From positions 3,812-53,981 of the forward strand of contig JAEURO010000001.1 in NCBI GenBank assembly GCA_016788345.1: a stretch of 50,170 nucleotides of DNA, read 5' to 3'. Positions 8,514-38,573 of this stretch are shown here, one piece after another. How positions within the stretch are numbered: the first letter of the stretch is position 1; every line of letters starts with the position of its first letter. The notes beneath the pieces are model-generated. The model worked only from the letters and a program-made list of their open reading frames with translations. It did not search any database and was not told the origin of the DNA. The translations under genes and the position numbers were made by a program. The stretch is from Chthonomonadaceae bacterium (GTDB taxonomy: Bacteria; Armatimonadota; Fimbriimonadia; Fimbriimonadales; Fimbriimonadaceae).

Positions 8514-9410
8514 TCAGCGAGGAGGATCGGCCAGCGGATAACGGACCTTGTGGTCGGGATATTGGTCTAGTCGTGCTTGTGACCAGCGGAGCCACTTGGC
8601 GTGTCCGTCCGCGTAGATGTAATTAGAGCCTTGGTTGTGACGGTCATACTTGATCCAGCCTTCTTGTGGTCGAGATCCGTCTCCCCATCTGACGAGCGCC
8701 GCTTCCCCGGCCCATGAGTCATAGTCGTCCTGCAAAGTGTAGTAGAAACTGCTGCCTGGATCACTGAAGCCTTCTGAGTTTCGCTCACTAAAGAGGATGA
8801 TGTTCGGATCGTCGAGTCCAGCCAAAACACCCTCTGTGGCAAAACCGCTCAGAGCACCTTCGAGGGCGAAGCGACACGATTTGTGCGTGAAAATGGAGTT
8901 GAGCAGATAGCTCCAGGGTGCGAAGTTGTTCCTTCGAGCCACACAGGCCTCTCCTGTTGGGTTTGCTTCACACTCGGTTCCGACCCCTTGTGCGTCACCG
9001 CTATAGTCCTCAAGATTGGTGGATAGTTTGCCAGGGTGCATGGATCTGTCTTCGGGGCAGAAAGCGACTTGCCTCGACTTCATGTACGGATGCATGATGA
9101 TGGCCCATGGCTTTTCTGCCTGACTGTTTCCAAAACCACCACCTTCGCAATCTGAGGCCGAGGCTGGCAAATCGACGACCAGAGAGCCGTCGTCTAGCAC
9201 CCAGTCATCGTGGTGGTGGAACAGAGACCCATCGTTGTCTTGAAGGTAGAGGCTCGACCCCAAGCCAAGCTGCTTCTGATTGCTGAGGCAGACAGATTTC
9301 TTTGCAGCGCTTTTGGCCTGAGTGAATACAGGAAACAAGATCGCAGATAGGATCGCGATAATCGCGATCACTACGAGGAGTTCAATGAGAGTAAACGCTT
9401 GGCTTTTCAT
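8514..9410 (-). CDS. Prepilin-type N-terminal cleavage/methylation domain protein, H-X9-DG (DUF1559-like) pseudopilin
   Basis: Starts MKSQA|[24 protein letters not shown] and ends in ...[16 protein letters not shown], the H-X9-DG-type C-terminus. Confidence 0.85.
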
Positions 9411-9532
9411 GGCAGGCCCATTGTCCGACGCTCTTCTGACCGCGGGTCATCGTAGACATGAACAGGGGATGAATCATTGGGACAGGACGGCAGAAGGATT
9501 TGCGGTAACCTGCTTCTCTGCTCGACCAGCCT

Positions 9533-10825: not shown

Positions 10826-10882
10826 GGAAAACCGGGACATTCTGCCTTTCATTGAATTACGATAGACATGAGGCTTTGCCTT

Positions 10883-11713
10883 ATGCATAATAAACGTCTT
10901 CGCGCCTTCACCCTGATCGAGCTCTTGGTTGTGATCGCGATCATTGCCATTCTTGCCGCTATCCTCTTCCCAGTCTTTGCCCAGGCAAAACGAGCTGCAA
11001 AACAAACCCAATGCATCATGCAGACACGGCAGATCATCACTGCCCTCATCATGTATGCGGATGACCATGACACGACATGGGCTCCAGTCGCCACAGCCGC
11101 ATATACTGGGCCTGGCTATCGCCCCCAATATCCTTGGATCGGATACGACAACCGCAATGTTCAAGGTCCTGGCCAGTTTTACGGAGACATGACCCAACCG
11201 GCCAGGAACCCTCCAGCACCTGGAATGATCGATCCGTATCTCAAGAACCACGAGGTCAAAGCCTGCCCAGAAAAGCCTCGGTCTTGGCAACTCGCCATCG
11301 CCTACAACTATTGGCACAATTGCGCTCCCCAAGCGAATTGTGACGTGAGTTCAAGTTATTGGTCTCGAAACCCCGCGGCCCGTCTTCAAGAATATGGCCC
11401 TGGAGGAAAGAACATGAACAATCGCAGGGGATTTGTCGAAGCAGAGGGTGTCACCGATGGCGAGATCGCCGAACCAGCCAACACGCTCGCCACTTGGGAG
11501 CATGGTGTCTGGGCGCCAGTCTGCGTGTTCATTTTGGGGCCGAATTGGTTCGAATCTCCCCCCGCTGACACGAACACTAAAGCCCACTTCCAGTTCCTCC
11601 ATCGAGAAGCCGCTGTTCTTTCTTGGTGTGACGGTCACGCGAAACGATACGCCTATGGCCAGCTCAAGAGGCCGATGTTCTCAGTGAGAAAAGACATCTA
11701 CGAAGGACAATGA
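10883..11713 (+). CDS. Prepilin-type N-terminal domain pseudopilin (H-X9-DG type), tandem paralogue 1
   Basis: Starts MHNKRLRA|[24 protein letters not shown] and has C-terminal WCDGHAKRY. An upstream ATG at 10868 is an alternative start. Confidence 0.85.
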
Positions 11714-12522
11714 AGCGCGGATTCACGCTCATTGAACTTCTGGTCGTCATCGCTATTATTGCCATCTTGGCCGCTATACTCTTCCCGGTTTTCAGCCAGG
11801 CAAAAGAAGCGGCCAAACAGACCCAATGCATCATGCACATGCGACAGTTGGGTGAGGCCCATATCCTCTACTTAGGCGACCACGACGACACGTGGGCCCC
11901 GGTATACAACTCGACCTCTACTGGCCCAGAATTTCCCCGTACCCAACCTTGGATCGGATATGACACGCGGAACGGGGGCGGGGGAGGAGGCTTTTACGGT
12001 GACATCAGACGGCCAGCCACCCACCCTGTCCAGCCAGGGAAAATCGACCCGTACTTGAAGAACTTTGCCGTCCGTCAGTGTCCTAACCGGCCGGCTGGAT
12101 GGCAAATGGCTGTCGTCTATGGCCTCTGGACAGGGTGCGACAGCAGGACGGACTGCCAAAGGCAGGGCATCTCGTCATCCTATTGGAACCGTAACCCCGC
12201 CGCGATTGGTCGCGAATACAGCGTCGGGGCCATGCGGCAAGTCAGTGGCGGGTTCTTGGCGGCCACGGACAGCTCAGTCCAAGAACCCTCTAAGACTCTC
12301 GTCATGTGGGAACATGGAAATTCGCCTCCAGCCTGCCAGTTCTTGTTCCCGCCCGATTGGTACGACAATCCCCCCAACAATTCGCGACTCATCGACCACT
12401 TCCACCTTCTCCACAGGGGCGGTGCCGTCACAGTCTTCGCCGACAGTCATGTTCGAAGAACGGCCTACTTCGCGCTCAAACGCTCGTGGTTCTCAGTCGA
12501 AAAGGACTTCTATCCAGAGTGA
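11710..12522 (+). CDS. Prepilin-type N-terminal domain pseudopilin (H-X9-DG type), tandem paralogue 2
   Basis: Starts MKRG|[24 protein letters not shown]. It is about half identical by eye to the upstream gene. Its start overlaps the upstream stop (ATGA). Confidence 0.85.
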
Positions 12523-13693: not shown

Positions 13694-13719
13694 GAAGCCA
13701 GCCGGTATCCTAAGGGCTT

Positions 13720-14133
13720 ATGGAAGAGACTACACTTGTCCTTATCAAACCCGGCGGAGTCGCCCGAAACCTGATCGGTGAGATCACGCGTAGGATCGAG
13801 GCCAGAGACCTGCGCGTCACCGGATTGAAGCTTGTTAACGCGGAGAGAGCAATCGTCGAAGAGCACTATGGAGAACACCGGGAGCGGCCGTTCTTCCAAG
13901 ATGTTTGCGACTACCTCACCAGCGGTCCCATCGTGTGCATGGCTGTGAACGGGACTAACGCGGTCAAGGCGATCCGGACGATGATGGGTGCGACGAACCC
14001 AGTGGAAGCTGCGCCCGGGACAGTGAGAGGAGACCTTGCGCTGACCATCGACGACAACCTGACCCATAGCAGCAGTGACCCCGAAGCCGCTGCGAGAGAG
14101 TTGGCACTTTGGTTTCCAGAAGGCACGGTCTGA
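13720..14133 (+). CDS. ndk: Nucleoside diphosphate kinase
   Basis: 137 aa with TLVLIKPGGV, ERPFF, GATNP..A.PGT.RGD and N..H.S. Confidence 0.95.
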   Translation: MEETTLVLIKPGGVARNLIGEITRRIEARDLRVTGLKLVNAERAIVEEHYGEHRERPFFQDVCDYLTSGPIVCMAVNGTNAVKAIRTMMGATNPVEAAPGTVRGDLALTIDDNLTHSSSDPEAAARELALWFPEGTV

Positions 14134-14172: not shown

Positions 14173-15210
14173 TTGATAGTCCAATTCCGACCCATCCTAC
14201 TGACCAAGAGGTATCCGCTGAGGATCAGCCGAGGTGTCAGTACTGGCTCGACAAACCTCTTTGTCCAGGTCAGCGATGGAACGCACATTGGGTTAGGCGA
14301 ATGTGCTCCTGGCACAGGACACAACGACCAAACTTTTGCAACTGCGGCGCAAGAGGCTTTATCGAAGTTTGTGGAACGTCACGACTTAGCCCAAGGCCCG
14401 CACCAGGTCTGGGCAGACATGGAGGCAGCCGGCCTCGATCGCGCTTACATGGCAGGCGTGGACATCGCTTTGTGGGACCTCCTTGGCAAACAAGCCAAGC
14501 TGCCTCTTCGGGCTCTGCTCGGACTGCCGCGTAAAACAGTGGCAACGAGCGTGACAATCGGCATCAACCCACCAGAGGTCATTGCTGAACGGGTTCCTGA
14601 AATCTTGCACCGGACCGGGGCCAAACACTTAAAGGTCAAGCTGGGAAGCCCAGAGGGATTGGACTCCGATAAGGCCTCTTACCTGGCTGTCATCGAAGCC
14701 TCCAAAGGGTCACAAGTGTCTTTCAGGGTCGACGCGAACGGTGGCTGGAACCTGAACAACGCTCAAGCGATGGTACAGTGGCTGGCCGACCATGGCTGCG
14801 ACTATGTCGAGCAACCGCTTTCCGACAGCGATGAGCCAGGTTTGGACATGTTGTTCGAGGGCTCGCCACTTCCCATATTTCTTGATGAGTGGATTCGGTC
14901 AAGCGGCGATGTGGCCCGATTTTCTGGAAGGTGCCATGGGGTCAACCTGAAACTCATGAAAACCGGAGGGCTGACAGAAGCACTGCGTGTTGTCGCCACC
15001 GCAAGGGCGAACGGACTCAAGACAATGATCGGCTGTATGGGAGAGTCCCCAGTGGCCATTTCGGCAGGTGCGTCCCTTGGTGCGCTTTTCGACCACATTG
15101 ACCTGGACTCCCACTTAAACCTCCTGCCTGGGCCCGTGTCAGGATCAAGACTTGAAGACGGCGCCGTTTGGCCGACCGAAGTCCCTGGCCACGGTGCCTT
15201 ATTGGACTGA
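14173..15210 (+). CDS. Enolase-superfamily dipeptide (L-Ala-D/L-Glu-type) epimerase
   Basis: 345 aa with a TTG start. Has KVKLG, RVDANGGW, VEQP and LDEW metal/catalytic landmarks of the MLE subgroup. Confidence 0.72.
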   Translation: MIVQFRPILLTKRYPLRISRGVSTGSTNLFVQVSDGTHIGLGECAPGTGHNDQTFATAAQEALSKFVERHDLAQGPHQVWADMEAAGLDRAYMAGVDIALWDLLGKQAKLPLRALLGLPRKTVATSVTIGINPPEVIAERVPEILHRTGAKHLKVKLGSPEGLDSDKASYLAVIEASKGSQVSFRVDANGGWNLNNAQAMVQWLADHGCDYVEQPLSDSDEPGLDMLFEGSPLPIFLDEWIRSSGDVARFSGRCHGVNLKLMKTGGLTEALRVVATARANGLKTMIGCMGESPVAISAGASLGALFDHIDLDSHLNLLPGPVSGSRLEDGAVWPTEVPGHGALLD

Positions 15211-23623: not shown

Positions 23624-24325
23624 ATGAAATCCAAAGCTTTTACTTTAATCGAGCTCCTCGTCGTGATCGCGATCATTGCGATCTTGGCGGCGATCCTGTT
23701 CCCCGTTTTTTCTCAAGCCAAAATGGCCGCCAAGAAAACCAGTGACCTCTCAAATTTTCGCCAGATCGGCAATGCCATAACCCTCTATGCTTCTGACAAT
23801 GACGACCGGACCATGTACGTCGACCACTCGAACGATTACAAGTGGTTCGTCCCGCTGTACACCTACGTGAAGTCGAAGGACGTTTTCACGACGCCGGCTT
23901 ATAAACGGCACGAGGTCGTCGATGACGAAGGTGTGACCATCATGCCGGAAACAGACTACAGCATAAATGGACTGTTTTCACATGGAGAATCCATGACCGT
24001 TAGCTCGGATTCTGCAAAGCAAATCGTTGTCGGGTTAAGGAACATCGAGGCGGCAGACCCGGACTATCATCCTTGGCCCGGAGCAGCCTATCAGGATCCG
24101 AATACCCCAGACTGGAATGACATCACTAAGTACATAGGAGCCGACCACTTAGGCGGCGAGGAAGAGGATTGGTTCCAAGAAAGACTTCAAATTTCTCCTT
24201 GGAACGGCGGTTCAAACTACTCATTTCTTGACGGTCACGCCAAGTTCATCAAATGGACCAAGTCGATCGAGGCGCCCTTACCTGGGATGCATAATCCAGA
24301 TCGAATTGTCGAAAAGCTCTTGTGA
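23624..24325 (+). CDS. Prepilin-type N-terminal domain pseudopilin (H-X9-DG type)
   Basis: Starts MKSKA|[24 protein letters not shown] and has C-terminal [16 protein letters not shown]. Confidence 0.85.
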
Positions 24326-24344
24326 ACCCCACTCGCCTGACCGG

Positions 24345-24848
24345 ATGGTCGCCGTTTCGATTGGATCAAACATCGGCGACCGGGTTGGCAACTTGGCCAG
24401 GGCTGTAAAAGCCCTGGCCCGACTCGACTCGAACGCAGTGGTGAGCAGTGTTTATGAGACAGCTCCCATGTACGAAATCGACCAAGCCAAGTTTCTCAAC
24501 GCGATTGTTGTCTTTACATCTAAGCTAGAGGCAAGCGAGCTCCTCGACGTGTTCAAGGTGACCGAGGCCGAGATTGGCCGAAAGAAAAGGCTGGCCAATG
24601 GACCGCGTGAAATCGATTTGGACCTCGTTTGGATTGATGGCTATCAGTCTCCTCTAGGCGCCGTCCCAATCGTCCCACATCCGAGGGCACATGAGAGAAA
24701 GTTTGTCCTCGAACCTCTGAACGAAATCCTTCCAGGTATCGTTCTACAAGGATATGGAAAGGTCGAGCGGCTCCTGATGTCGGAAGACCTCCAGGGGCAG
24801 TCGGTCGACAAAGTGGAAGATGCGTCGATTCTCTTATCTAGCGGTTGA
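24345..24848 (+). CDS. folK: 2-amino-4-hydroxy-6-hydroxymethyldihydropteridine pyrophosphokinase (HPPK)
   Basis: Has VAVSIGSNIGDR...S.VYET.P......F.N......T......LL......E...GR.....GPR.IDLD...... HPRAHER.FVL.PL. The start is the internal ATG at 24345. Confidence 0.88.
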   Translation: MVAVSIGSNIGDRVGNLARAVKALARLDSNAVVSSVYETAPMYEIDQAKFLNAIVVFTSKLEASELLDVFKVTEAEIGRKKRLANGPREIDLDLVWIDGYQSPLGAVPIVPHPRAHERKFVLEPLNEILPGIVLQGYGKVERLLMSEDLQGQSVDKVEDASILLSSG

Positions 24849-26124
24849 TAGGGCAGGGCATGAGGTCAGCGGAGTGCTGGATGCGGTCACTGAAAACGAC
24901 CTTGTAGTGCGATTGTCAAACCAAGGCCTCAGATTGAAATCCATCGCAGCTGCTCCAGGAGCTCAGCCCGGGCCAAGTGTTTCCACCTCAAGAGTCGTTC
25001 CTGTCTCTGGACTTGTCGCCGCCAATAACTCTGTTCCCGCCGCCGCCCCAAAAACTGCCCCTGCCGTACCGACGGTATCACAATCCATCCGAACAAAACG
25101 CGCCAGCGCCAAGGACTTAATGTTCCTGTTTACTCAGCTCGGAACCTTGCTCAGATCAGGGATCAGCCCGACGGCCGCCCTGACCGAGTTGGCGAGCAGG
25201 CTGGCGAAGTCTTCCTTGTCCAATGTGTTGCACGAGATGTCCAAGCGTGTGGCCACGGGGGCGACTCTAGCTGACTCAATGGCGGTGTATGCAGACGTGT
25301 TCCCCCCAGGCACCGTCAAATCTGTTCAAGCGGGCGAAACTGGCGGCTACACTTGGCAAGCCTGCGAAACGCTTAGCGAGCAATTCGCGTCGTCACACAA
25401 AATGCGCTGGGCTGTCAGGTTGTTCCGTTGGGTCGCAGTTGCCGGGCTACTCGGTGTGCCTGTCGTATTTGCCATAACCCTGGCTCTCGACTACTCCTTT
25501 GCGACCTTGTCCGGTCTACCTGGCCTAGTGAAGGGGTTTGGCCAGGCCATGTTGGGCCCCGCTGGCTTGGCGATCCTAGTAATGACGGCTGGATATTGGG
25601 TACTCAGGCTCTGCTTTGTCCGGACAGAGGCGCGGGCCCTCCGTCACAAAATTGGCGCGCACGTACCCGTATTTTCAGCTAAGGCGAGGGCTGAGTGCCT
25701 GGCTGTCTTTAATTGGCATTTGGGAAAGTTATCCGAAGCTGGGATCGCCCCAATGACAGCTTGGAGACTTGCGGGCGAATCGGTTCCAAACGAGCACTTT
25801 GCAGGACTCTTTCGCGAACTCGGTCAGAGGGCCACTGAGTCGACAAAACTGTCTCAGCTTGTCCGCTCTTCCAAGGTTTTTCCGCCTGAGTATTGCAGTG
25901 TCATCGAGACTGGAGAATTGGCCGGAAGTCTGCCCGCCGCATTGAGCCAAGCGTCCGTATTGGCCAACGATTCAGCATCAAGATATGACAAAGCATCGAG
26001 GACTTCGCTCTATCTGGCCTATATCGCTTTGTTCATGGTTCTGGGGATCACATGCGGAAAGATGTTTTACACTGCATACGTGAACAGTTTGATCAAGCAC
26101 ACTGTCGAGGAGGCAGAACAGTAA
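24820..26124 (+). CDS. Type II secretion / type IV pilus platform protein (GspF/PilC family), paralogue 1
   Basis: 434 aa with an N-terminal FSYLAVDRAGHEVSGVLDA motif and two T2SSF-type repeats (LMFLFTQLGTLLRSGISP...; LAVFNWHLGKLSEAGIAP...) with TM segments. It overlaps the folK end by 29 nt. Confidence 0.8.
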   Translation: MRRFSYLAVDRAGHEVSGVLDAVTENDLVVRLSNQGLRLKSIAAAPGAQPGPSVSTSRVVPVSGLVAANNSVPAAAPKTAPAVPTVSQSIRTKRASAKDLMFLFTQLGTLLRSGISPTAALTELASRLAKSSLSNVLHEMSKRVATGATLADSMAVYADVFPPGTVKSVQAGETGGYTWQACETLSEQFASSHKMRWAVRLFRWVAVAGLLGVPVVFAITLALDYSFATLSGLPGLVKGFGQAMLGPAGLAILVMTAGYWVLRLCFVRTEARALRHKIGAHVPVFSAKARAECLAVFNWHLGKLSEAGIAPMTAWRLAGESVPNEHFAGLFRELGQRATESTKLSQLVRSSKVFPPEYCSVIETGELAGSLPAALSQASVLANDSASRYDKASRTSLYLAYIALFMVLGITCGKMFYTAYVNSLIKHTVEEAEQ

Positions 26125-26127
26125 GGC

Positions 26128-27336
26128 ATGCCGACTTTCGAGTACTCGGCGATTGATTTTGCGGGCAACCCGGTGAACGGACTGGTTGACGAAGCCGATC
26201 TCGCGCTGGCTAGCAAGGCCCTGACCGAAAAGGGCCTGACCGTCCAGAAGCTTGAAGTCCGGCAGCCCCTCGCCGCACCCTCTGCCCCGCCCACAGAGCC
26301 TAGGAACACGTTTCGCACCGAGGTGGCAGGGCGAGCGATCCAACTCGTTTCTCTCCAGAGCCTGGAGTTTTTCTTCAGCCAGTTGGGAACCCTCCTCGAA
26401 GCAGGGATCAACCCCGTGGACGGGCTAGAATCTCTGGCGCGACAGTCGAACAACGCGATACTTCGATCGGTGATTGAAGAATGCCGTGGCCACGTGACCG
26501 TGGGACGACCCCTGAGCGTCGGCCTTCAACGGTACCCGGAGATCTTCTCCCCTTTGATCTTGAGCTTGGTCAGGGTCGGCGAAGAGGGCGGAATGCTTTC
26601 GACCCAGTGCAAGTTGATAAGTGAGTACATCCACAGGGACATCGAACTGAAAAACATGATTCGGCGCGAAACCATGGGCCCGAAAGTCACGGTGTTCGGA
26701 TCCATCGCGATCATAGTCGGAGTCAACGGGTTTCTTCAAATCATCGCGCCAAAATCTGGGGGGCTTCCCGTCCCAACCACCTTCTGGGTTGTGGCAGCCA
26801 TCATTACGGTCGCGGTCTGGCTGTTTCGCTCATTCATGCTCCCTCGTCCGCCGGTCAGGCGGGCTTTCGACGAATTCGTCCTAACGTTGCCCGGCCTCGG
26901 CGGGATGGCGCACGGTTTTGCAATGGCCAAGTTTGGCCGGGCGTTTGGAGCGTTGTACAAGGGTGGGGTGGCGTTACCTAAGGCAGTCCGCCTCGCGTGC
27001 GACGCTTGTGACAACGAGGCCGTCCGGGCCAAAGTGATGCCGGCCACCGACGCACTGGAGCGGGGGGCGGGAGTGACCGAGACCCTCCGCTCGACAAATG
27101 CCTTTAGCCCATTGGTATTGGACATGACCCGCACTGGAGAAACGACCGGAAACATGGATGAAATGCTGGTCAAAGTCTCTGAGTATTACGAATCTGAAGG
27201 GGCCATGAAGGCTCAGGTCGCCTCAAAAATCATTGGCGTCGTGTGCTTGGTACTTGTCGCTGTCTATGTCTTGTTCATCCTCCTGTCGTTCTATGGAGGC
27301 TATTTTGCGAGCCTCATGGGCGGTGCCGGGAGTTGA
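26128..27336 (+). CDS. Type II secretion / type IV pilus platform protein (GspF/PilC family), paralogue 2
   Basis: 402 aa with N-terminal FEYSAIDFAGNPVNGLVDA and two T2SSF repeats (FFFSQLGTLLEAGINP...; AKFGRAFGALYKGGVALP...). It starts 3 nt after the paralogue-1 stop. Confidence 0.85.
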   Translation: MPTFEYSAIDFAGNPVNGLVDEADLALASKALTEKGLTVQKLEVRQPLAAPSAPPTEPRNTFRTEVAGRAIQLVSLQSLEFFFSQLGTLLEAGINPVDGLESLARQSNNAILRSVIEECRGHVTVGRPLSVGLQRYPEIFSPLILSLVRVGEEGGMLSTQCKLISEYIHRDIELKNMIRRETMGPKVTVFGSIAIIVGVNGFLQIIAPKSGGLPVPTTFWVVAAIITVAVWLFRSFMLPRPPVRRAFDEFVLTLPGLGGMAHGFAMAKFGRAFGALYKGGVALPKAVRLACDACDNEAVRAKVMPATDALERGAGVTETLRSTNAFSPLVLDMTRTGETTGNMDEMLVKVSEYYESEGAMKAQVASKIIGVVCLVLVAVYVLFILLSFYGGYFASLMGGAGS

Positions 27337-28572: not shown

Positions 28573-29775
28573 ATGAGGACGATCGGGGATCTTAAACTAA
28601 TCCAGCAAGCTGTTTCGATGTACGAGACGGCGACCGATGCGTTGTCGGCCATGGCCAGAAACTCGGTAGCTGTTGTCTCAGTTCTCGACGATGGGAGGTT
28701 TATCGGCGTCGTGACCAAGGACACTGCAAAGGCTGCCGCTCCAGACACGCCAGTGCGGGACCTCGTTAAGACCCTCGTCATCGAGATGCCTGCGGCGACG
28801 CCGGTCCGTAACGCAGCCGAGGTCTATCTGCAGAACGGACTCGATTTCGTACCAGTGATGGACGGTGACAAGTTTTGCGGGCTATTGACGGCCGTCCAGT
28901 TCCTCCTTGACCTCAGCTGGTCTTGGGATCCGATGACGGCCCTGAGCTGGAGCGACCGTCTACGCGAATGGGGCGTCGACCAATTAGAGGATGGCCGAGA
29001 AGTGACAGTGGTTTTTGTCGATCTAGATAACTTTGGAGCCTACAACAAGACTCATGGACATGTGGTTGGCGACCGAGTGCTCCGGGCCGTCGCAAAACTC
29101 CTGGCGAACAAAGCAGACTCCAACCAAGACCTTTTGGTGAGATATGGAGGCGACGAATTCGTCATTGGGTCGATCCGGCCCCGGGGGGACGTAGAATCTG
29201 ACTTTCGGGAACTCGCTCAAACCTCGGTTGTTGTCGAAGGCGTCCCCGAGAAGGTGTCCTTCACAGTCGGCGTCGCGGGAGGCAAGCGGACGCGAGAGAG
29301 AGAAAGGACTCACGTCGCTTCAACACTTGACAATTTGATCAACCTCGCAAGTAAGGACGCCCTGGCAAGAAAGGCACGTCGGTCTTCCAAAGAGCAGCCC
29401 ACAGAGAAAAGAATCTGCAATGTTGAGATTGAGCCTAACCAGGCAGGATCGACGGCTCTCGCATCGGTCGAGCTTTCGAACGGGGTTTTCATCGCCTCGC
29501 ACCCAGTTGTCGACAACGATAAGATCGCAGCCGTTGGAATGGCCGTGTCGCGGGCTCTCGAAAGATCCCGCCCGGGTGTCAAAGTGACCTGCCAGGACGT
29601 CGTCTTGTATAAGAGATGGGACGGTGAACCTGTTGTAATCGTAAGGACCAAAATACAAAAGGAGTCCGTCTCCGAAGTAGTCGAAGTGTCAAAGTACGCA
29701 CCTTCCGGAGTTCTCACTTCTCTCGGCGAAGCGGTGGTTTCGGCTTGCCAAAAATCGATCGTCTTTAACAGCTGA
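28573..29775 (+). CDS. CBS-pair + GGDEF diguanylate cyclase with uncharacterised C-terminal extension
   Basis: Two CBS-like segments precede FVDLDNFGAYNKTHGHVVGDRVLR...RYGGDEFVI, with an intact GGDEF at 29146-29160. About 130 aa after the cyclase domain match nothing I recognise. Confidence 0.85.
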   Translation: MRTIGDLKLIQQAVSMYETATDALSAMARNSVAVVSVLDDGRFIGVVTKDTAKAAAPDTPVRDLVKTLVIEMPAATPVRNAAEVYLQNGLDFVPVMDGDKFCGLLTAVQFLLDLSWSWDPMTALSWSDRLREWGVDQLEDGREVTVVFVDLDNFGAYNKTHGHVVGDRVLRAVAKLLANKADSNQDLLVRYGGDEFVIGSIRPRGDVESDFRELAQTSVVVEGVPEKVSFTVGVAGGKRTRERERTHVASTLDNLINLASKDALARKARRSSKEQPTEKRICNVEIEPNQAGSTALASVELSNGVFIASHPVVDNDKIAAVGMAVSRALERSRPGVKVTCQDVVLYKRWDGEPVVIVRTKIQKESVSEVVEVSKYAPSGVLTSLGEAVVSACQKSIVFNS

Positions 29776-29981
29776 CCACTGGCCGCTTGTCATCTGCTTG
29801 ATTTGCGACGTCGCATAGCGACCCCTCGCATCCAAATTTTATGCCTGGAGCAAAGATGGATTGGGGGTGCCTTTGGCCCGCCTTCCCGTCGGCCAAACCT
29901 TCAATTCAGGTACAAACAAGGCTGAAACTACACGTTCTGGTCATGTTTCATGATGTGGCTGGAGCCTGGGAACGAACCTGA

Positions 29982-31568
29982 ATGGCCCTGATGGACAACG
30001 ACAAGACGGTGCATGAAATTCAAACTGACGACCAGCTCTTAGAGCACTACTCGGAGAAAGAATACGAGTGGGGGTTTGTCAGCGATGTCGAAGCGGAAAC
30101 GCTACCACCTGGCCTCAGTGAAGAGACTGTCAGGTTTATCAGTGCTAAGAAGAATGAGCCTGAGTGGATGCTGGAGTGGCGGCTCAAGGCTTTTCGTCAC
30201 TTCCTGACCTTGACCGAGCCGACCTGGCCCAATGTTGAGTACGAAAAGCCACGACTTCAAGAAATTTCCTTCTATTCGGCACCGACTAAGAAGCCCTCGC
30301 TTGATTCTCTCGAAGACGCTGACCCCGAACTGCTGCGGACGTTCGAAAAGCTGGGAATCCCGCTTAGGGAGCAGGAAATCTTGCTCAACGTGCGAGGTGC
30401 CGCAGAGGCCCACGCTTCCGGATCTCCACCCCCAACCCCCTCCTCATCTGCACAAACATCAGACGAGGAGGGGGCTCCGATTTCCGGTGGGGTCGCCATT
30501 GACGCAGTTTTCGATTCCGTCAGCGTTGTCACAACATTCAAGGAAACGCTCAAGAAGGCGGGCGTCATCTTTTGTTCGATCAGTGAAGCGATCCAAGAGC
30601 ACCCAGAACTGGTCAAAGAGTACATGGGCAGCGTTGTGCCCTACAGCGACAACTACTATGCGACCCTCAATAGTGCCGTTTTTAGTGATGGCTCGTTCGT
30701 TTACGTTCCCAAAGGCGTCCGTTGCCCGATGGAGCTCAGCACGTACTTCCGGATCAACGCCGAGAACACGGGGCAATTCGAACGGACCTTGATCATCTGC
30801 GCCGAGGGGGCCTACGTCAGCTACCTCGAAGGCTGCACAGCACCTAAGCGAGACCAGAACCAACTGCATGCCGCAGTCGTCGAGCTCGTCGCCCACAAAG
30901 ACGCGACCATCAAGTACTCGACCGTCCAGAACTGGTATCCCGGCGACCCCAAGACGGGCAAGGGCGGCATCTTCAACTTTGTCACCAAGCGCGGGATCTG
31001 CCGCGAGAGCGGCGGCAAGATCACGTGGACCCAGGTGGAGACCGGCAGCGCTATCACATGGAAGTACCCGAGCGTGATCCTCAAAGGCGACGACAGTGTC
31101 GGAGAGTTCTACTCCGTCGCCCTCACTGCTAACAAGCAGCAGGCCGACACCGGCACCAAGATGGTCCACATCGGCAAGCGCACCCGCTCGACGATCGTCA
31201 GCAAAGGGATCAGTGCGGGCAACGGTCAGAACACCTACCGCGGCCTCGTCAAAATCAACGCGGGGGCAGACGGAGCGCGCAACTACTCGGTCTGCGACTC
31301 GATGCTGATGGGCGACCGCTGCGGCGCCCATACCTTCCCCTACATCGAGGTCAAGAACAACACCGCCAAGATGGAGCACGAGGCGACGACATCCAAGATC
31401 GGCGAAGACCAGCTCTTCTACCTCGCCTCGCGAGGGATCAACGAGGAGGACGCGATCAACATGATCGTGTCTGGCTTCTGCAAAGACGTCTTCCGCGAGC
31501 TCCCCATGGAGTTCGCCGTCGAGGCGCAGAAGTTGCTTGCGGTGAGTTTAGAGCACAGTGTCGGCTAG
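29982..31568 (+). CDS. sufB: Fe-S cluster assembly protein SufB
   Basis: 528 aa with SufB motifs throughout, ending in ...[31 protein letters not shown]. It contains a ~30-aa low-complexity insert. No sufC/D/S/U is adjacent. Confidence 0.95.
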
Positions 31569-31574
31569 GCAGGC
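31470..31574 (+). repeat. Direct repeat copy 1 (functional 3' end of sufB plus 6 nt)
   Basis: Hand alignment to 33673-33776 gives about 16 differences in 105 nt, with an identical 28-nt core at 31505-31532. Confidence 0.85.
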
Positions 31575-31609
31575 TCAACTCTTCGGGTAGTACACCCTCA
31601 ATCTTCGTG

Positions 31610-32362
31610 TCATTTGCTGACAAGCCGAAGAGGGACGTACCAATGACCCCCATGCCACAGAAGCGTGTCTGGACAGTCCTGCCACTCGGATCCTTTCTTG
31701 AGCTTGGTCGACCCCAAGGGAAAAACGTAGTCCAGCCCACTGTAGTTAAAGGAGGCCGTACCTCTGACCTTGTTCCAGGTTATTTCGACTCCAGCCGCCG
31801 CCGCCCACCCGTCCAGGGGTAGGAGCACATCGCCAGAGGGGCCCGTGCGGCAACCTGAAACCCGATGGCCATAGACCGTAGCGTCGCCCGCCGCCCGGGT
31901 GTCAAGCCCCCTGATCTTTGCGACGGCATATCGCGCCGCGCCTTCTTGCAGCTGATAGTCGGTCTCGGTGACTGAGATGCCAGTTAGTCGAACATAAAGC
32001 ACCAGGCGACCGGTCATAAAATAGAGGAATCCTCCGTCTGGGCCCCTAGAGTCCGCACACCTATTGGCAAGAGGAAGTCCAGACCTGGGGGTCTGCGGCC
32101 GATCTGGGGCGTACTTAGATATCAAAAACGTATTGGCTTCGTTCCAGATTTCCTCGATACTTAGCTTGTCGTCTGTGCGCATCGCAACAATGTCGAGTCG
32201 AGAATTGTCCCTCTCTCGGCTGTAATAGACCATATGTGCGACTTTCGTACGAGTTTTGGAAAGCATGAAACCACACAAAATTGAAGGATCTGGTTTCAAG
32301 AGGTCGACGTCTGGTAACTCTTGTTTTGCGGCGGTCAGATATAGTATCACGCTTAGAATCAT
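31610..32362 (-). CDS. Hypothetical protein; C-terminal part resembles copper-amine-oxidase-N-terminal-like 'stalk' domains
   Basis: 250-aa ORF. The tail ...LLPLDGWAAAAGVEITWNKVRGTASF...HWYVPLRLV is reminiscent of Cu_amine_oxidN1-type domains. (AAT)4 abuts the ATG. Weak assignment. Confidence 0.45.
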   Translation of the reverse strand: MILSVILYLTAAKQELPDVDLLKPDPSILCGFMLSKTRTKVAHMVYYSRERDNSRLDIVAMRTDDKLSIEEIWNEANTFLISKYAPDRPQTPRSGLPLANRCADSRGPDGGFLYFMTGRLVLYVRLTGISVTETDYQLQEGAARYAVAKIRGLDTRAAGDATVYGHRVSGCRTGPSGDVLLPLDGWAAAAGVEITWNKVRGTASFNYSGLDYVFPLGSTKLKKGSEWQDCPDTLLWHGGHWYVPLRLVSK

Positions 32363-32412
32363 AAATTATTATTATTAGTGAAGGTCATTGGTAAAAGCAC
32401 ACTTCAGTAGTT

Positions 32413-33582
32413 CTAGACCAGCTCGATAACCGTCCAGTCGTACCAATAGGGAATAAGAAAGTTATTGCCAGGATAAAATGGATAGTTGGCAGCAAGACCT
32501 CCCCAAAAATATGTGTAAAATTGCCAGTACATCGAACGTGGCCATCCCGGTATTGGGTTGTCCCAAAAAAAGCCACCTATGTCCTTTTCCTGCGCCGCGC
32601 AAGCGTCGAAGGCGTCTGCACCGTTAGAAGTCGCTTGGGCATGAAAAGCAAAGTCAAAAGGCTGATAGGTGCTCCACCCAGTGCCTCGAAGAGGGTTTGT
32701 GCGGAACCCTGCTTGACCTCCAGGGCTGACTGCGGTGACTTTTGACAACACTATGGGCACACCAATGGCTTCATTGCAGATTGCGAAGTACGCAGCGACG
32801 TCCTGACAGTCAACAAATCTAAAAAATTGGAGCGTATCAATGAAGAGTTTTAGACGGAAAAGTCCAATTGTATTGGTTACTGGTAGATAGAAATTCGGTT
32901 GCGTAGAATCATACAACCCTGCCGAGCCGAAAACTCCGTAGGTGCAAGCGGCGCGACAGGCGTCTGGGCCGGTCAGCCCTGTGCACCAAAGACATGATTT
33001 GTCTAAGACTTCGGCCCAAACGGGCACCTGGTGGCCCGGAGCCGCACCAATCGGGGCGGTGTCCGTCAGCCACACTTTGATCCCCACGTCGTTGCCGAAG
33101 AGCGAGGCATAGTCTGAATCACACACAAAGTCAAAGGTCAGGTCCCCCAACGTCACAAAGATTGGCAGGCCGCTGATGGTGAATTCAACTTGGTTGCACT
33201 GGCCGTTGGCCGGAAACTACACGGGTTGGGCGGCTGGCGTCACAGACAGTGTGAAACTACCGCTCGCTGACGAATACCTGACGTCAGAAATGCTGATAAA
33301 CGTTCCATGGGCATACGGCGTCGGGTTTGTGAGGGCGATTTTGAACTTGCGAGTCCCCGAAGAGCGCACCCACGCGACACCTGGCGCACCTCCAGGCACT
33401 TCGGCGGGCAGGTATTGGCCGGGATCCGCCGTTGGCCACACTTCAGAACTGGTCAGAGACTCACTGGCGAGATAGTCCAAGAACGTGAGGCTATACGGCG
33501 GCTCTAGCGAGCCCGAACCTGCCCCACGGAACATCCCGCCCAAGGCGACACCCGCAAGAGCGACTGTCGAAATACCTACCAT
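32413..33582 (-). pseudogene. Secreted protein gene interrupted by a single in-frame TAG (121-aa signal-peptide part + 267-codon open remainder)
   Basis: ORFs 33217..33582 and 32413..33156 are in the same frame. The only stop between them is TAG at 33217-33219, and the intervening 20 codons are open (FPANGQCNQVEFTISGLPIF). The N-terminus MVGISTVALAGVALGG is signal-like. Confidence 0.5.
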
Positions 33583-33589
33583 TGGCGCA

Positions 33590-33610
33590 TACTACTACTA
33601 CTACTACTAC
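33590..33610. repeat. Trinucleotide microsatellite (TAC)7 = (GTA)7 on the minus strand
   Basis: Seven perfect units lie 8-28 nt upstream of ATG 33582 of the minus-strand gene. Further degenerate TAC units follow to about 33633. Confidence 0.9.
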
Positions 33611-33672
33611 TGTTAAAACTACTAGCTTTTACTGTGGTCGCTGATCAGTCCAACCTGGACAATTGGGCGGCC

Positions 33673-33776
33673 TCAGGTTTCTGCAAAGACATCTTCCGCG
33701 AGCTCCACATGGAGTTCGCCGTCGAGGCGCAGAAGCTGCTGGCCGTGAGCCTAGAGCACTCGGTTGGTAGGCCTGG
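33673..33776 (+). pseudogene. Orphan sufB 3'-end fragment (direct repeat copy 2)
   Basis: Translates to [32 protein letters not shown] with no SufB sequence upstream. A 1-nt deletion removes the stop. It has P->H in the ELPMEF motif. Confidence 0.8.
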
Positions 33777-34079
33777 CATGCCACATGATGAGCTAGTCTC
33801 ATGCTATAGGATCCCCAAAGGACGGTGCTCAGTGGTCGAACATGGACAAGAAACCGTTCGTTCGCATTTTGGATCTAGTGATGGCAACCGCCTTGACGGC
33901 GGCATCTGAGGCAAGAGTCACTGAGGGTTCTTGCCGAGCGCTTGGCACCCCCACAGCCCGAAATCTCTCCCCAAAAACGTGAGCAAATCGTGAATTGACG
34001 TTGTGACGATCCTGTCACAAACACTGTGTTTCAATGGGGGAGAGCCACGGCATTCGAGCCTTGGCAAAAGGAAAAACAC

Positions 34080-35423
34080 ATGTCAAAACTAAAAGGAACA
34101 CTGCGTGCGCTTTGCCTATTGACGATCGGTTTGTCGTCCTTAGCCTACTCCCTCCCCGTCCGGTTTGGATCGCCCGATATGGATGGAGCCACATGTGTGG
34201 ACGTCGACCCTGTCTCCGGATCGGTCTATGTGGCCGGCTCCTATTACACAAACAAGCTCGTCAAAAGTCAAATGTGCCTGAACAAGTACACCGCGGCAGG
34301 CGTCCTGGTTTGGTCCCGGCTCTACGGCAACAAAGGTGAAGACACAGCGCTAGACGTTAAGGTTTCCCCAACTACAGGCGAGATTTATGTGACAGGCAGG
34401 GTGGAGAATGCCTTGACCGGACATACCGACTGCGCCACTCTCAAATACTCGCCTGGTGGAGTTCGCTTATCGTCTCACCTTTACGGCGGCGCGCTCGACG
34501 ACGCAGGAAAGAAAATCACTCTAGACGGAGTCGGCAACTGCCTGGTCGCCGGCTACGCCTCGCAGTCGGCTTCAGGCAAAGACATCATGCTGCTCAAATA
34601 CAGTCCTGGCCTGACGCTAACCCTGCCCGTCGTTTTGACCAGTGCGTCTGGTGACGATGAGGCCAATGCGATCGCCGTGAACAGCAATGGCGCTTATCTC
34701 GCTTGTAAGATGACGAACTCCGCTGGCAACCAAGATGGATTCTTGGCGAGGATTTCACTCGTCTCGGGGGCCGTCTTGGGCAATAGACTGTTTGCAGGGA
34801 CGGCTTCCGCGAACGACCAACTTGTCGACGTGGCTTATGACGCTGCTGGCTCCGTCTATGTCGCGGGCACCGTCGACGACACGGTTGGTGGGCAAATGAT
34901 CGTGGCAGGAAAGTTCAATCCAAACTTGGCCGTGACGAACTGGGTCTCGCCCTTTAACGCTGTAGCAGGGACCACCGATGACTTTGCAAACAGGCTGAAG
35001 GTCACGAGCACCGACGTCTATGTCGCTGGGGCATCCTTCGGCGTGACCGGGCTTGGCGCGGACGCCGTCATGGTGAGCTTTGACCCTCTGACTGGCGGAC
35101 TTCGTCCAGGCTGGCCGTGGTTCTACCATTACTTGGATCACGATGAAGTGAAGGACTTTGTGGTCGACCCTGTCTCTGGTTCGATTTTCGCGGGGCTTTA
35201 CACGGACGGATTTCCATCCCACGACTACGCCACGATCCGAATCAATGGCGGCCTGACAAGTTGGGTGAACCGCTACCACTACTACAGCCATGACGAGATG
35301 TCCGAAGTCGCCCTAAGCCTCACCGGAAACCCGATCATAACTGGAAGATCTGAAGGACCAGGCACGAGCTTCGATTGGGCCACAGGAATGTGCGACGCGA
35401 CGACCGGATCCGATGTTTGGTGA
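34080..35423 (+). CDS. Secreted SBBP beta-propeller repeat protein
   Basis: Signal peptide MSKLKGTLRALCLLTIGLSSLAYS. It has repeated ...D.A.....D..G..YV.G........D....K....G... units typical of SBBP repeats. Confidence 0.75.
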   Translation: MSKLKGTLRALCLLTIGLSSLAYSLPVRFGSPDMDGATCVDVDPVSGSVYVAGSYYTNKLVKSQMCLNKYTAAGVLVWSRLYGNKGEDTALDVKVSPTTGEIYVTGRVENALTGHTDCATLKYSPGGVRLSSHLYGGALDDAGKKITLDGVGNCLVAGYASQSASGKDIMLLKYSPGLTLTLPVVLTSASGDDEANAIAVNSNGAYLACKMTNSAGNQDGFLARISLVSGAVLGNRLFAGTASANDQLVDVAYDAAGSVYVAGTVDDTVGGQMIVAGKFNPNLAVTNWVSPFNAVAGTTDDFANRLKVTSTDVYVAGASFGVTGLGADAVMVSFDPLTGGLRPGWPWFYHYLDHDEVKDFVVDPVSGSIFAGLYTDGFPSHDYATIRINGGLTSWVNRYHYYSHDEMSEVALSLTGNPIITGRSEGPGTSFDWATGMCDATTGSDVW

Positions 35424-35591
35424 CGCTACTCTGAACTCACGATCAATCAAAACCTATCCTTGGGGCGCCCGTTTCACGATTCTGTGACGGGCGCCAGCCC
35501 TTAATGAAAGGCAAGATGGATGCGACGAGAGATCTGCAACTGGCTTGCCACGGAGTCGCAATTCTTTGTCTCAATCTGACAAACTTCTTGC

Positions 35592-38573
35592 ATGGTCGAG
35601 GTTCGCGGCGAGCCTGCTTGGCGGATCCAGACTTTTGGCGGACTCCGCGTGACCGGCCCGAATGGGCCAGTCTCTTTTCGGACACACAAGACCGCTGGGG
35701 TGTTTGCTCACTTGGCCTACTATGCCAGTCGATCGGTATCAAAGGAGATGCTGATGGAGGCCTTCTGGCCAAACACTCCGCAGGAGAAAGCGCGCCAGTC
35801 GCTGCGGACTGCCGTCTCCGCGATCCGAATCGAGATCGAGAAAGCGGGAAGCGTTCCGGCCAATTGGATCCATTCCACCCATCGGGCGCTAGAAATCGGG
35901 TCCGACTGCTTCGAAGTCGATACCGCCCGGTTTCGACAGTTACTGACCCTGTCCAGGAACCAGGATGCCGACACCAAAGTCAAGACTCTTACAGCCGCCT
36001 GCGAACTCTACTTGGGCCCCTTCTTGCCCGATTTTTCCGAAGAATGGGTCGTCCCCCAGACCCTGGAATTGGAAGAGCAGTACGTCCAGGCAGTCAGCGA
36101 ACTTTCTCCGCTCTTGTCTGCAATTGGAAACCCAGGGCAAGCGATCGAAGTCGCGTCTCGGGCAGTGACTCTATGTCCGGGGCGAGAAGAAGTGCACATT
36201 GCACTCATGAAAGCGTTTGCCGCGGCAGGCAGGGCCACGTCGGCCATCGCTCAGTTCGAACTTATGGAGAAGATGCTGGACGAGGAGTGGGGCGAATCGC
36301 CCTCGTCCGAAGCCCTTGCCGTCCTAGACAATCTTCCTCGGGCACAAAGCCAGAACCGACACACGACCGGAGATTCCCAAAGAGATGAGGAGGACCTTCA
36401 ACTGACTGCTGTTGCTGAAAGGGTTCCTGCCACCACGGGAGGGTTCTACGGACGCAGCCTTGATGTCGACGATGTTTGCCGCGCCCTTAGGCCAGGGTCT
36501 TCTGCAACACGTTGTCTCACTTTGACCGGACTCGGAGGGAGCGGCAAGACCCGATTGGCACAGGCAGTGGCCCTGGCTCTCGACGAGCCATTTCGAGGAA
36601 GAGTGTGGTTCGTCCCTTTGGCTGGAGTCGCATCGTCGGATCATGTCGCAGACGCGGTTCTGGGCCAGGTCAATCCAGACCTTGTCGTCGGCCCAGAGCC
36701 AATGGCTGATCTCAGTAAGTCTCTCAACGGGGCTCCTTCGTTCATCGTCCTGGACAATCTTGAGTCTGTTTTCCCTAGCGTAAAGACGATTATCGAACTG
36801 ATGCTGAGGGCTTGTCCTGAGTTGACAATTCTCTCGACATCGCGGTGGCCGATCGGCTCAGACCTTGAGGTGGTCAGGCCGGTGGGGCCCCTAGAGTTGC
36901 CTAAGGACTATCATGACTTACCCGCCATGCGGTCAAATCCGTGCGTCCAGCTGTTTGTCGAGCGAGGAAACTCGGTCCGACCTGGATTTCAAGTCAGTGC
37001 GATCAATGCGCGAGGCGTGTACGAGCTGTGCTGCCGCCTAGGTGGGCTGCCGCTGGCACTTGAGCTTGCGGCCTCAAAACTTGCCACGAGAAGTCCAGTC
37101 CAAATCCTCTCTATGATCAGCGAGACACTCGATCTTTCGACCGACGACATGAGGGTCGAGGAACGCCACCGCAGCTTGCGTACGGTTGTTAAGTGGAACT
37201 GCGACCAACTCGACGACGATTGCCTGAGATCGTTCGTGAAGCTGTCAGTGTGCCAGGGAGGCTGGGAGAGCGACCTGGCTGAGGCGGTCCTTGGCCAAAG
37301 TGCAGAAAGCCATGTCCCTTCTTTGATTGGAGCCTCGCTGGTCTATTGGTCTGAAAGCGAGGAAAGCGTTCGGTTCGACATGCTGGAATCCGTGCGTGAA
37401 TACGCTCTGGAATTGAGAAAGGCAGAGCCAGAACTCAGCAAGGAAGCCGTCATCGACCATGCTCAGTTTTTCACGGAACTGTGCGCAGAGCGGCCCCGGG
37501 GGCAGAAATCGCAAGACTGGCTTAAACGCCTTGGTAGAGAGCAGGGCAATCTGTTGGCGGTCATCAATGCTGGCGCACAAAGCCTCATCCCATCTGAATC
37601 GGCATGGACGGTCTGCGAGGCCGTTATTGAGCTCGTGAACTGGAGGGGCCGGTCCGCAGTGTGGGTTGAAAGCATGGCCCAACTTCTTGACACTACTGGG
37701 GAGTCATTGCCCTTGCCTCGGCTAGTCGAAGCTGAACTGGCAGTGGCAAAAATGTATTACGGGCTTCGAGACATCGCCGAAACTTACAATCATGCAGCCC
37801 GCGCGCTCGAAGCAGCGGACATCTCTGGCAACAAGAGCCTGCAGATCAGGGCCCGGGTCGGTATGGCAGTTCCAAGCTCTCTTATCGGCAAGTTTGACGA
37901 GGCCAAAGCAGACCTTGCTGACGCCCTGAGTCTTCTAGATGAAGGGGCCAGCCCCTCGGAGAGATTTGGTATTGAGCTCAACTTGGCATGGCTTTACTTT
38001 GATGGCGGCGATGAGCCGGGCTCGCTGCCCGGCTTTCAACGAGCTTTGGCACTGGCCGAGTCTTATGGGGAACCGGCAGACATCGTGAGTGCGCTCGTCG
38101 GCTTGGCGGTGGCGGTGGGCGAGACACAGCCAGGCGAGGCCGCCGAACTGTTCGACAGGGCGAAAGAGTTGGCAGACTCCAGGGGTCGCCGTCAGGAGGC
38201 CGCCCATTGCCTCTACTACCGGGCAATGACGGAGCACAGGGCTGGGCTTAAAGACGAATCTCTGATCCATGTTCTGCAAGCGATGTCGCTCTTTGTCGAA
38301 CATGGCATTCGGCTAGGGCAAACCATACTCACCATCGCGGGCTGCTCTTTAGCGAGTGCCGGCCGATATGAAGAGGCCGCCATTTGTTGGGGACGGGCAG
38401 AAGCGAGCCGAAAGAGGCACGGAATGAAGATGTTTCCTACACAAGCCAAGGACTATGAGCGCGAAGTCGTCAAAGTAAAACAGGCTTTAGGGCCCATGGC
38501 TTTCGGTACGGCGTCGACTTGGGGGGCAGAAACAAGCGACGAAGACTTGACCCAAAGGCTATTCAATGCCTAG
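35592..38573 (+). CDS. SARP/AfsR-like regulator: OmpR-type winged helix + BTAD + NB-ARC-like P-loop NTPase + TPR (STAND architecture)
   Basis: 993 aa with N-terminal IQTFGGLRV...LAYYA...EAFWP, BTAD-like helices and the P-loop LTGLGGSGKTRLA. The C-terminal half is helical and TPR-like. Confidence 0.78.
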   Translation: MVEVRGEPAWRIQTFGGLRVTGPNGPVSFRTHKTAGVFAHLAYYASRSVSKEMLMEAFWPNTPQEKARQSLRTAVSAIRIEIEKAGSVPANWIHSTHRALEIGSDCFEVDTARFRQLLTLSRNQDADTKVKTLTAACELYLGPFLPDFSEEWVVPQTLELEEQYVQAVSELSPLLSAIGNPGQAIEVASRAVTLCPGREEVHIALMKAFAAAGRATSAIAQFELMEKMLDEEWGESPSSEALAVLDNLPRAQSQNRHTTGDSQRDEEDLQLTAVAERVPATTGGFYGRSLDVDDVCRALRPGSSATRCLTLTGLGGSGKTRLAQAVALALDEPFRGRVWFVPLAGVASSDHVADAVLGQVNPDLVVGPEPMADLSKSLNGAPSFIVLDNLESVFPSVKTIIELMLRACPELTILSTSRWPIGSDLEVVRPVGPLELPKDYHDLPAMRSNPCVQLFVERGNSVRPGFQVSAINARGVYELCCRLGGLPLALELAASKLATRSPVQILSMISETLDLSTDDMRVEERHRSLRTVVKWNCDQLDDDCLRSFVKLSVCQGGWESDLAEAVLGQSAESHVPSLIGASLVYWSESEESVRFDMLESVREYALELRKAEPELSKEAVIDHAQFFTELCAERPRGQKSQDWLKRLGREQGNLLAVINAGAQSLIPSESAWTVCEAVIELVNWRGRSAVWVESMAQLLDTTGESLPLPRLVEAELAVAKMYYGLRDIAETYNHAARALEAADISGNKSLQIRARVGMAVPSSLIGKFDEAKADLADALSLLDEGASPSERFGIELNLAWLYFDGGDEPGSLPGFQRALALAESYGEPADIVSALVGLAVAVGETQPGEAAELFDRAKELADSRGRRQEAAHCLYYRAMTEHRAGLKDESLIHVLQAMSLFVEHGIRLGQTILTIAGCSLASAGRYEEAAICWGRAEASRKRHGMKMFPTQAKDYEREVVKVKQALGPMAFGTASTWGAETSDEDLTQRLFNA

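Follow-up and report, generated by a model that had tools for sequence, protein, structure and literature searches.

The elements e14 and phage 21, which sit at the 3' end of the icd gene of Escherichia coli, bring with them an alternative, mostly synonymously diverged gene end and displace the original one. To the best of our knowledge, gene-end integrations of this type are known almost exclusively from Proteobacteria and Firmicutes, where the elements carry their own integrase, and hardly any mobile elements have been described in Armatimonadota. Integration at the 3' end of a housekeeping gene that codes for a protein is in itself nothing out of the ordinary; integrative and conjugative elements (ICEs) as well as integrative and mobilizable elements (IMEs) insert into such gene ends, with one of the repeats restoring the gene, and cis-mobilizable elements (CIMEs) keep both attachment sites, attL and attR, while their integration and transfer genes are lost (PMC5704250). 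Here we analysed a stretch of 50,170 nt from contig JAEURO010000001.1 of a member of the Fimbriimonadaceae (Armatimonadota; GCA_016788345.1, positions 3,812-53,981 of the forward strand; hereafter the window, to which all coordinates refer), in which the 3' end of sufB, an essential Fe-S assembly gene, is present twice, as a direct repeat that brackets an insert of ~2.1 kb (31575-33672).

The sufB coding sequence itself (29982-31568, plus strand) is intact and encodes a protein of 528 amino acids (aa) with a SUFBD_core domain (Pfam, E=1.8e-79) in addition to a SufBD_N domain. The gene stands alone, with neither sufC nor sufD adjoining, and the same holds true for its relatives, the closest SufB homologues being encoded in metagenome-assembled genomes (MAGs) of Fimbriimonadaceae/Armatimonadota with 84-89% identity. 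A repeat search combined with a MAFFT alignment located the two copies of the gene end exactly where a preliminary description, made from the sequence and without database searches, had placed them. Copy 1 (31470-31574, plus strand), which resembles an attL site, covers the last 32 sufB codons, the stop codon and ~6 nt more, while the attR-like copy 2 (33673-33776, plus strand) is a displaced sufB 3' end without the gene body. The repeat search alone reported 87 ungapped nt with 90% identity (31470-31556 versus 33673-33759), and the MAFFT alignment extends the homology to a few nt beyond the stop codon. Instead of the roughly 16 differences over 105 positions given in that description we count 15, namely 14 substitutions and a 1-nt gap in copy 2, and the gap abolishes the TAG stop codon there as had been proposed. 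Both copies share a perfectly identical core of 28 nt, likewise at the positions reported before (31505-31532 = 33708-33735, plus strand), which is the likely crossover interval, with 4 of the substitutions on its proximal and 10 on its distal side. When a 27-nt probe for this core was run with up to 3 mismatches allowed, only these 2 sites were hit in the window, compared with 0 matches in 100 shuffles. Besides, no third copy of the sufB end, including meaningful arrangements of 11-mers, was found in the 50-kb window. The amino-acid exchanges in copy 2 are the P->H change already recognised in its translation and, in addition, V->I, and upstream of copy 2 (33673) neither a SufB body nor any other sufB-like sequence was found, again in line with the earlier account. 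An imperfect inverted repeat around CCATGG, the only local symmetry spotted by eye, is found at ~31494-31518, at the proximal edge of the core and within the codons for the conserved peptide R-E-L-P-M-E-F-A. It could represent a core-type binding site, but the DNA there is no better at folding than shuffled sequences, and we give it no weight.

The kind of differences between the two copies tells more than their number. Over the 96 coding nt, the 14 substitutions fall into 12 codons, 10 of which are changed synonymously and only 2 non-synonymously. A local duplicate in free decay would be expected to show mainly protein-altering changes. In 50,000 simulations with 14 substitutions placed at random, the number of amino-acid changes was 2 or lower in 0 cases. 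Of the 14 substitutions, no more than ~5 can have been free of constraint, compared with about four fifths (by rough site counts) expected for a functional copy accompanied by a neutral relic, and this latter model is rejected. Selection has acted on both copies. Since 14 nucleotide differences are accompanied by only 2 amino-acid differences, the copies come from two functional sufB lineages and not from a decayed local duplication.

Comparison with the sufB ends of other species revealed a polarity along the repeat. With the sufB ends of several other clade species, copy 2 shares 82-91% identity in its distal 33 nt, whereas the corresponding nt of copy 1 are 61-79% identical to the ends of other species and 70% identical to copy 2. 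In the proximal 35 nt this pattern is reversed, and copy 1 is nearer to the relatives. Both non-synonymous changes are found in the proximal part of copy 2, while all 10 distal differences are synonymous. Such a polarity fits a single crossover in the identical core, and it fits a working sufB that would consist of the host gene body and an imported end, with the relic being made up of an imported, never-expressed proximal arm and the displaced native end. The last 11 codons and the stop codon of the working gene (31533-31568, plus strand), an outlier among the clade ends with synonymous differences only, would thus have arrived together with the insert. The codon-usage likelihood of the two alternative ends did not discriminate between them, and the assignment of the native end therefore rests on the relatives. 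The idea of a replacement end, already put forward in the preliminary description, is upheld by the overwhelmingly synonymous differences and by the clade-like distal part of copy 2 opposite the outlying one of copy 1. Altogether, we are fairly confident that foreign DNA entered the last ~100 nt of sufB by recombination and brought a substitute for the gene's end.

We propose that the block 31575-33672 was acquired through a single reciprocal crossover within the final ~100 nt of sufB. Its source, a molecule with a sufB 3' end of its own, would have undergone Campbell-type integration via a circular intermediate. The crossover would have taken place in or beside the 28-nt core. The expressed sufB would be of host origin up to ~31504 and imported from ~31533 to the stop codon, and the native end would have been pushed 2.2 kb downstream (33736-33776), where its stop codon was presumably lost later. 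What was inserted would be an integrase-less islet, which comprises two cargo genes but no mobility function, and the sufB 3' end would serve as the attachment site of a site-specific recombinase whose gene is absent from the islet. Such an islet may be the cargo stump of a larger element after loss of the integration genes, as in CIMEs, or it may depend on a recombinase encoded elsewhere.

As for the composition of the insert, the comparison of tetranucleotide usage suggested in the preliminary description singles it out as the most deviant among all 2.1-kb windows, ~4.8 standard deviations off the mean. Its designation as a low-GC insert was overstated, though the underlying counts (66 G+C in 180 nt, 34 in 60 nt) are exact: the G+C content is 53.4% versus 55.4% for the window, corresponding to the 4.6th percentile of windows of the same size, and the dip is restricted to 32001-32500 (46%). 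The genes between the repeats are indeed all on the minus strand, but the two upstream open reading frames (ORFs; 33582-33217 and 33156-32413) turned out to be one gene split by a TAG codon. Cargo gene A (31610-32362, minus strand), which is convergent with sufB, encodes a 250-aa protein of unknown function, with Cu_amine_oxidN1 as its sole domain match (E=4e-5, just under the Pfam cut-off) and no match in NCBIfam or PHROGs. Cargo gene B (32413-33582, minus strand) has 389 codons and encodes a putative secreted protein; the in-frame TAG (33217-33219) divides it into ORFs of 121 aa and 247 aa. An intact homologue, P0121, is 390 aa long and 92% identical over its full length, and the close relative L106 (L0xx and L1xx labels denote fetched comparison loci) has TGG (Trp) in place of the TAG codon, which is thus either a recent nonsense mutation that made cargo B a pseudogene or a sequencing error. 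Remoter homologues of cargo A and B are paired in the same manner at ordinary chromosomal sites away from sufB (L109-L111, L153). Searches of Pfam, NCBIfam and PHROGs revealed no recombinase, transposase or phage function in either cargo gene, in agreement with the reported absence of an integrase, excisionase or transposase between the repeats, and no inverted repeats at the insert ends were reported by the repeat search.

Just upstream of the start codon of cargo B, in its promoter/leader region, lies a (TAC)7 microsatellite (33590-33610), which overlaps the spacer and the -10 hexamer of the only promoter-like match 5' of this gene (TTAACA-16-TAGTAT). The corresponding repeat in L106 has at least 8 units, and the contig ends inside it. 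Changes in repeat length may switch cargo B on and off.

Cargo B is found in all three Logan assemblies (L106-L108, from SRR14092351-53), and the two longer ones contain the sufB end and cargo A as well. In L106, the left junction and the cargo match those of the window, with ~90% nucleotide identity overall and 100% identity at 31500-31670, where the junction is included. Over the aligned region (31140-33611) the identity is a mosaic, in which blocks of 100%, e.g., 31260-31465 and 31500-31670, stand between stretches of 75-90%. Cargo A shows 75% nucleotide identity, its 5' part cannot be aligned, and its protein is 73% identical to a 246-aa counterpart. This mosaic suggests that recombination may have occurred repeatedly within and around the insert. 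Two strains or species that have already diverged share the insert, which therefore goes back to an old event and not to a recent mobile insertion.

To see how often such gene ends occur, the last 150 nt of each fetched sufB were searched for in the locus itself. In 4 of ~19 clade lineages including the window, the gene end was detected as a direct duplication, and all of these are in the Fimbriimonadaceae clade, while the sufB loci of other phyla did not contain any. In the window, the repeat of ~105 nt with its 14 substitutions and 1 gap encloses 2.1 kb with 2 minus-strand genes. In L084 (GCA_026129715.1), a 109-nt repeat with 95% identity brackets 2.65 kb with 5 minus-strand genes, including one for an extracytoplasmic function (ECF) sigma factor. 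Its copies follow the same pattern as those in the window, with an F->S exchange proximally and distal changes that are all synonymous. Between two cargo genes of this insert, ~12 tandem copies of the 10-nt unit GGTTCGGGTT were observed (L084:12925-13050). Shorter relics were found in L140 (~62 nt; insert of 1.2 kb with one plus-strand gene, 364 aa) and in L150 (GCA_018268395.1; ~32 nt; insert of 0.6 kb with one plus-strand gene, 186 aa, whose ATG overlaps the sufB stop codon). Non-synonymous changes are numerous in both of these short relics, which have probably undergone erosion. The relic in L140 is followed by a gene pair, the 151-aa product of which is 37% identical to that of the gene directly 3' of the intact sufB in L086, so that the two loci may provide an indirect before-and-after comparison.

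In all four cases (4/4), the right edge of the repeat is found at the stop codon or within a few nt of it. A self-comparison of 344 kb of clade loci identified partial gene-end duplications at sufB only, all other repeats being paralogous genes, two tRNA genes and one 49-nt repeat. Taken together, the sufB 3' end has been used independently at least four times in Fimbriimonadaceae. Most relatives are devoid of a sufB-end duplication, but their flanks are not syntenic with the window.

The DNA 3' of sufB has a different content in each lineage examined. Within the P0048 group (L086-L095), which represents one Fimbriimonadaceae species with identical SufB, the strains part ways ~5 nt beyond the sufB stop codon (position 11527) and continue with three distinct gene sets directly 3' of sufB, one of which codes for an IS200-type Y1 transposase and for a Fic protein; a sufB duplicate is absent within 10 kb of sufB in these loci. 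Because lineages as well as the strains of this group differ there, the site 3' of sufB is a hotspot of variation. In L089, two identical 49-nt direct repeats, each with a hairpin inside it (13702-13750 = 14872-14920), surround a 1.1-kb segment with one 252-aa gene, which may be another small bracketed insert within the strain-variable region downstream of sufB. Upstream of sufB in L151 (GCA_050246055.1), two tRNA gene copies on the minus strand (3623-3743 and 5510-5630; 84% identical over 121 nt) flank 1.9 kb with two minus-strand genes of unknown function, a segment that may be a tRNA-associated insert.

Which agent brought about the recombination is a separate matter, on which we are less firm. 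In our estimation, there is about an even chance that a site-specific recombinase acted on an attachment site in sufB and that the inserts are integrase-less islets, either stumps of larger elements or cassettes that depend on a recombinase in trans. We favour a site-specific recombinase because the duplications are strictly confined to sufB, because the two well-preserved repeats are of nearly constant extent, and because of the crossover polarity. A number of results weigh against it. None of the four inserts contains a recombinase, and they share neither DNA nor end sequences nor a protein, and thus bear no mark of a common element family. At their left edges, the repeats lie at unequal distances from the stop codon (-108, -102, -63, and -30 nt). 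No intact integrase-bearing element was detected at sufB across the ~19 clade lineages, nor was a recombinase domain found in 44 ORFs of the window, which comprise about all those of at least 150 aa. Single-strand DNA folds of both strands of both copies were not stabler than shuffles (z -0.6 to +0.1). ARAGORN (29000-36000) did not reveal any tRNA or tmRNA, and Rfam (31000-34200, E up to 1) did not reveal any RNA; by the same scans, the earlier statement that the target is a protein-coding gene and not a tRNA or tmRNA is corroborated. Moreover, the L106 contig stops in (TAC)n, ~60 nt before copy 2, so that the right junction is covered by the window assembly alone. Lastly, an empty site was not found, the available relatives lacking flanking synteny to the window.

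The searches behind these negative results covered several sources. Exact-match look-ups of the SufB and cargo A proteins retrieved no entry. A scan of GTDB genomes for an empty site returned only relatives with 70% identity or less, and a metagenome pattern scan returned 14 loci, 0 of which were syntenic on the downstream side. Likewise, tblastn of the flanking proteins of the window against all fetched loci did not yield any homologue adjoining sufB, and a propeller-gene homologue 3' of sufB in L135 and L147, indicated by weak tblastx matches, was not upheld. No integrase-bearing element was detected in ~45 clade loci, and a degenerate sufB-end pattern had no match in IMG/VR. The GenBank phage records that were opened (phiSP44-1 and three unverified 'Bacteriophage sp.' entries) contain full-length sufB and not a fragment that could serve as attP. 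Metagenome assemblies are biased against large, strain-variable elements. Several sufB contigs end soon after the stop codon (88 nt past it in L141, 2 nt past it in L121).

Two IMG/VR contigs from different metagenomes, UViG_3300020183_005579 (L132:1-96) and UViG_3300044997_000358 (L133:1-96), which share ~80% identity, both begin with one particular sufB codon, the G of S-G-F-C-K, 3 nt off the left edge of the window repeat. They were considered as attP-bearing phages and set aside as ambiguous: both are truncated versions of regions with a full sufB (L124, L125, L129), and their genes are mostly of cellular type. The common start could reflect an assembly break at a repeat/variant boundary, or chance.

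The footprint of an integrative element, as the preliminary description had interpreted this locus, is therefore supported in part. The replacement end, the deviant tetranucleotides and the three further bracketed inserts speak for it, while neither an integrase nor an empty site was found and the event is old.

Capture without any recombinase is the main rival, and a serious one, though in our opinion clearly less likely. Here, DNA downstream of sufB in a related donor would have been taken up by RecA-mediated recombination on the sufB side and an illegitimate join slightly upstream of the point where homology ends, i.e., the stop codon; the same limited degree of belief includes the variant in which a circle with a sufB 3' fragment integrates by a single homologous crossover. 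Much of what was observed would be accommodated. Neither a recombinase nor a common gene is present in any of the four inserts, whose sizes are small (0.6-2.65 kb), and the repeats differ in their left edges but keep one right edge, at the very point where homology between species stops. The cargo consists of ordinary clade genes with homologues in normal chromosomal contexts, and the sequence 3' of sufB is species-specific, with strains that differ from ~5 nt past the stop codon onwards. The synonymous pattern and the polarity of the copies are equally compatible with capture. However, all four events took place at sufB, and no similar duplication was seen at other genes in the 344 kb, conserved ones included. 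Homology-facilitated illegitimate recombination usually deletes recipient DNA and does not duplicate 30-110 nt of it, which also speaks against capture. Furthermore, no donor with sufB followed by this cargo was found; the gene pair of L109-L111 does not adjoin sufB, and the contig of L153 ends within its cargo A homologue, before any neighbour on that side.

We are more doubtful still that the sufB 3' end of Fimbriimonadaceae is a dedicated platform for cassette capture, in which units of 1-5 genes that lack mobility genes are taken up time and again, the gene receiving a new end and the old end being left behind at each insertion. The agent would be a recombinase encoded elsewhere, or a recombinase-free mechanism that uses the coding sequence as its site. 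If true, this would amount to an integron-like system with the end of an essential gene as its 'attC'.

It is very improbable that the structure is an assembly artefact, in which a chimeric join was made at the sufB fragment of another strain in a metagenome-assembled contig. The nearest relatives are all MAGs and the source is apparently metagenome-derived as well, the right junction lies outside L106, which stops at (TAC)n, and the identity between the window and L106 is a mosaic. On the other hand, the left junction and the cargo recur in the independent Logan assemblies L106-L108, analogous structures are found inside long contigs of unrelated assemblies (1.17 Mb in L084, 418 kb in L150), and the 14 differences between the copies show that the repeat is not a collapsed one. 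The view that copy 2 is the last remnant of a decayed tandem or nearby second sufB, with unrelated genes in between, is close to refuted: SufB and SufD are paralogues, and in the sufBCD operons of other phyla (L001-L080) the SufD C-terminus follows that of SufB by ~2.1-2.2 kb, the same spacing as here and a coincidence, but the copy 2 protein is 86% identical to SufB versus 25-45% for SufD, nothing sufB-like lies upstream of 33673, a decaying copy would not retain 30 of 32 residues after 14 substitutions, the homology begins abruptly at nearly the same codon in L084, and no relative has sufCD beside sufB or carries a tandem or full second sufB, the presence of which would, according to the preliminary description, have been fatal to its proposal.

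Elsewhere in the window (8514-12522 and 23624-27336), there are several genes for proteins with a prepilin-type N-terminal methylation motif and two T2SS-F genes. The prepilin N-terminal regions form direct repeats with 75-79% identity (10901-11022/11716-11837 and 10916-11008/23648-23740).

If a trans-acting or host-driven mechanism proves true, it would provide uncultured bacteria with a simple route to swap small gene sets beside a conserved anchor. Displaced sufB 3' fragments may also be used as markers of acquired DNA in these genomes, and they are a likely cause of contig breaks near sufB in metagenome assemblies.

Among the described systems, e14 and phage 21 are closest in logic. There too, the target is a housekeeping protein gene, the imported end is expressed and the old end is found at the far junction. 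These elements have their own integrase beside the attachment site and measure 15-40 kb, in contrast to the recombinase-free 2.1 kb at sufB of a member of Armatimonadota. Integron cassettes and clusters of attC sites lacking integron-integrases (CALINs) are small gene units with repeats of ~60-140 nt that use one fixed site and a recombinase acting in trans. The inserts at sufB resemble them as units of one to a few genes that lack mobility genes of their own, are bounded by repeats and occupy a single site. However, the site at sufB is a coding gene end under protein-level selection and not an attC hairpin, and neither intI nor an array accompanies it; the cargo also lies in differing orientations, on the minus strand in the window and L084 but on the plus strand in L140 and L150. 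With no attC-like fold (z -0.6 to +0.1), no integrase in the window and only two repeat copies, an assignment to integron cassettes or CALINs was rejected. A transposon or insertion sequence was dismissed as well, as there is no transposase, terminal inverted repeats are missing and the repeat is ~105 nt long with 14 mostly synonymous differences, and so was an island that targets a tRNA or tmRNA, no such gene having been detected by ARAGORN or Rfam.

In anatomy, the closest match is offered by the CIMEs and the related ICEs and IMEs of streptococci (PMC5704250), where CIMEs likewise display attachment-site repeats without mobility genes and a site is used repeatedly. The insert in the window retains attL and attR and is free of integration and transfer genes, as is typical of CIMEs. 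For the latter, parent ICEs together with their integrases have been identified and experiments have demonstrated cis-mobilisation by accretion, whereas neither a parent ICE or IME at sufB, nor its integrase, nor a tandem accretion was seen in any fetched locus. Reports on SGI1-type islands at the trmE 3' end and on islands at the dusA 5' end (PMC8409611, PMC6531882, PMC4482086) describe diverse cargo at one conserved-gene site, a feature shared with sufB, together with a cognate integrase and core repeats of ~18-21 bp, compared with the ~105-nt homology and missing integrase here. Like integrase-bearing islands in general, the locus has the repeats and a restored gene; it differs from them in the absence of the integrase. 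Staphylococcal prophages (Sa1int, PMC6036120; phiSP44-1, NC_055019) have sufB as a landmark in common with the present locus, and the integrase gene of phiSP44-1 is located directly 3' of sufB. Their site is an intergenic 12-bp repeat 48 nt past the stop codon, an integrase is present, and sufB is neither duplicated nor replaced. Full-text literature searches and GenBank phage records yielded neither a report nor an instance of an element integrated within the 3' end of sufB. Thus, the event itself is of a known kind, while sufB as the target gene and Armatimonadota as the phylum are new, and the unusual element is the recurrence of cargo-only inserts at the end of one essential gene.

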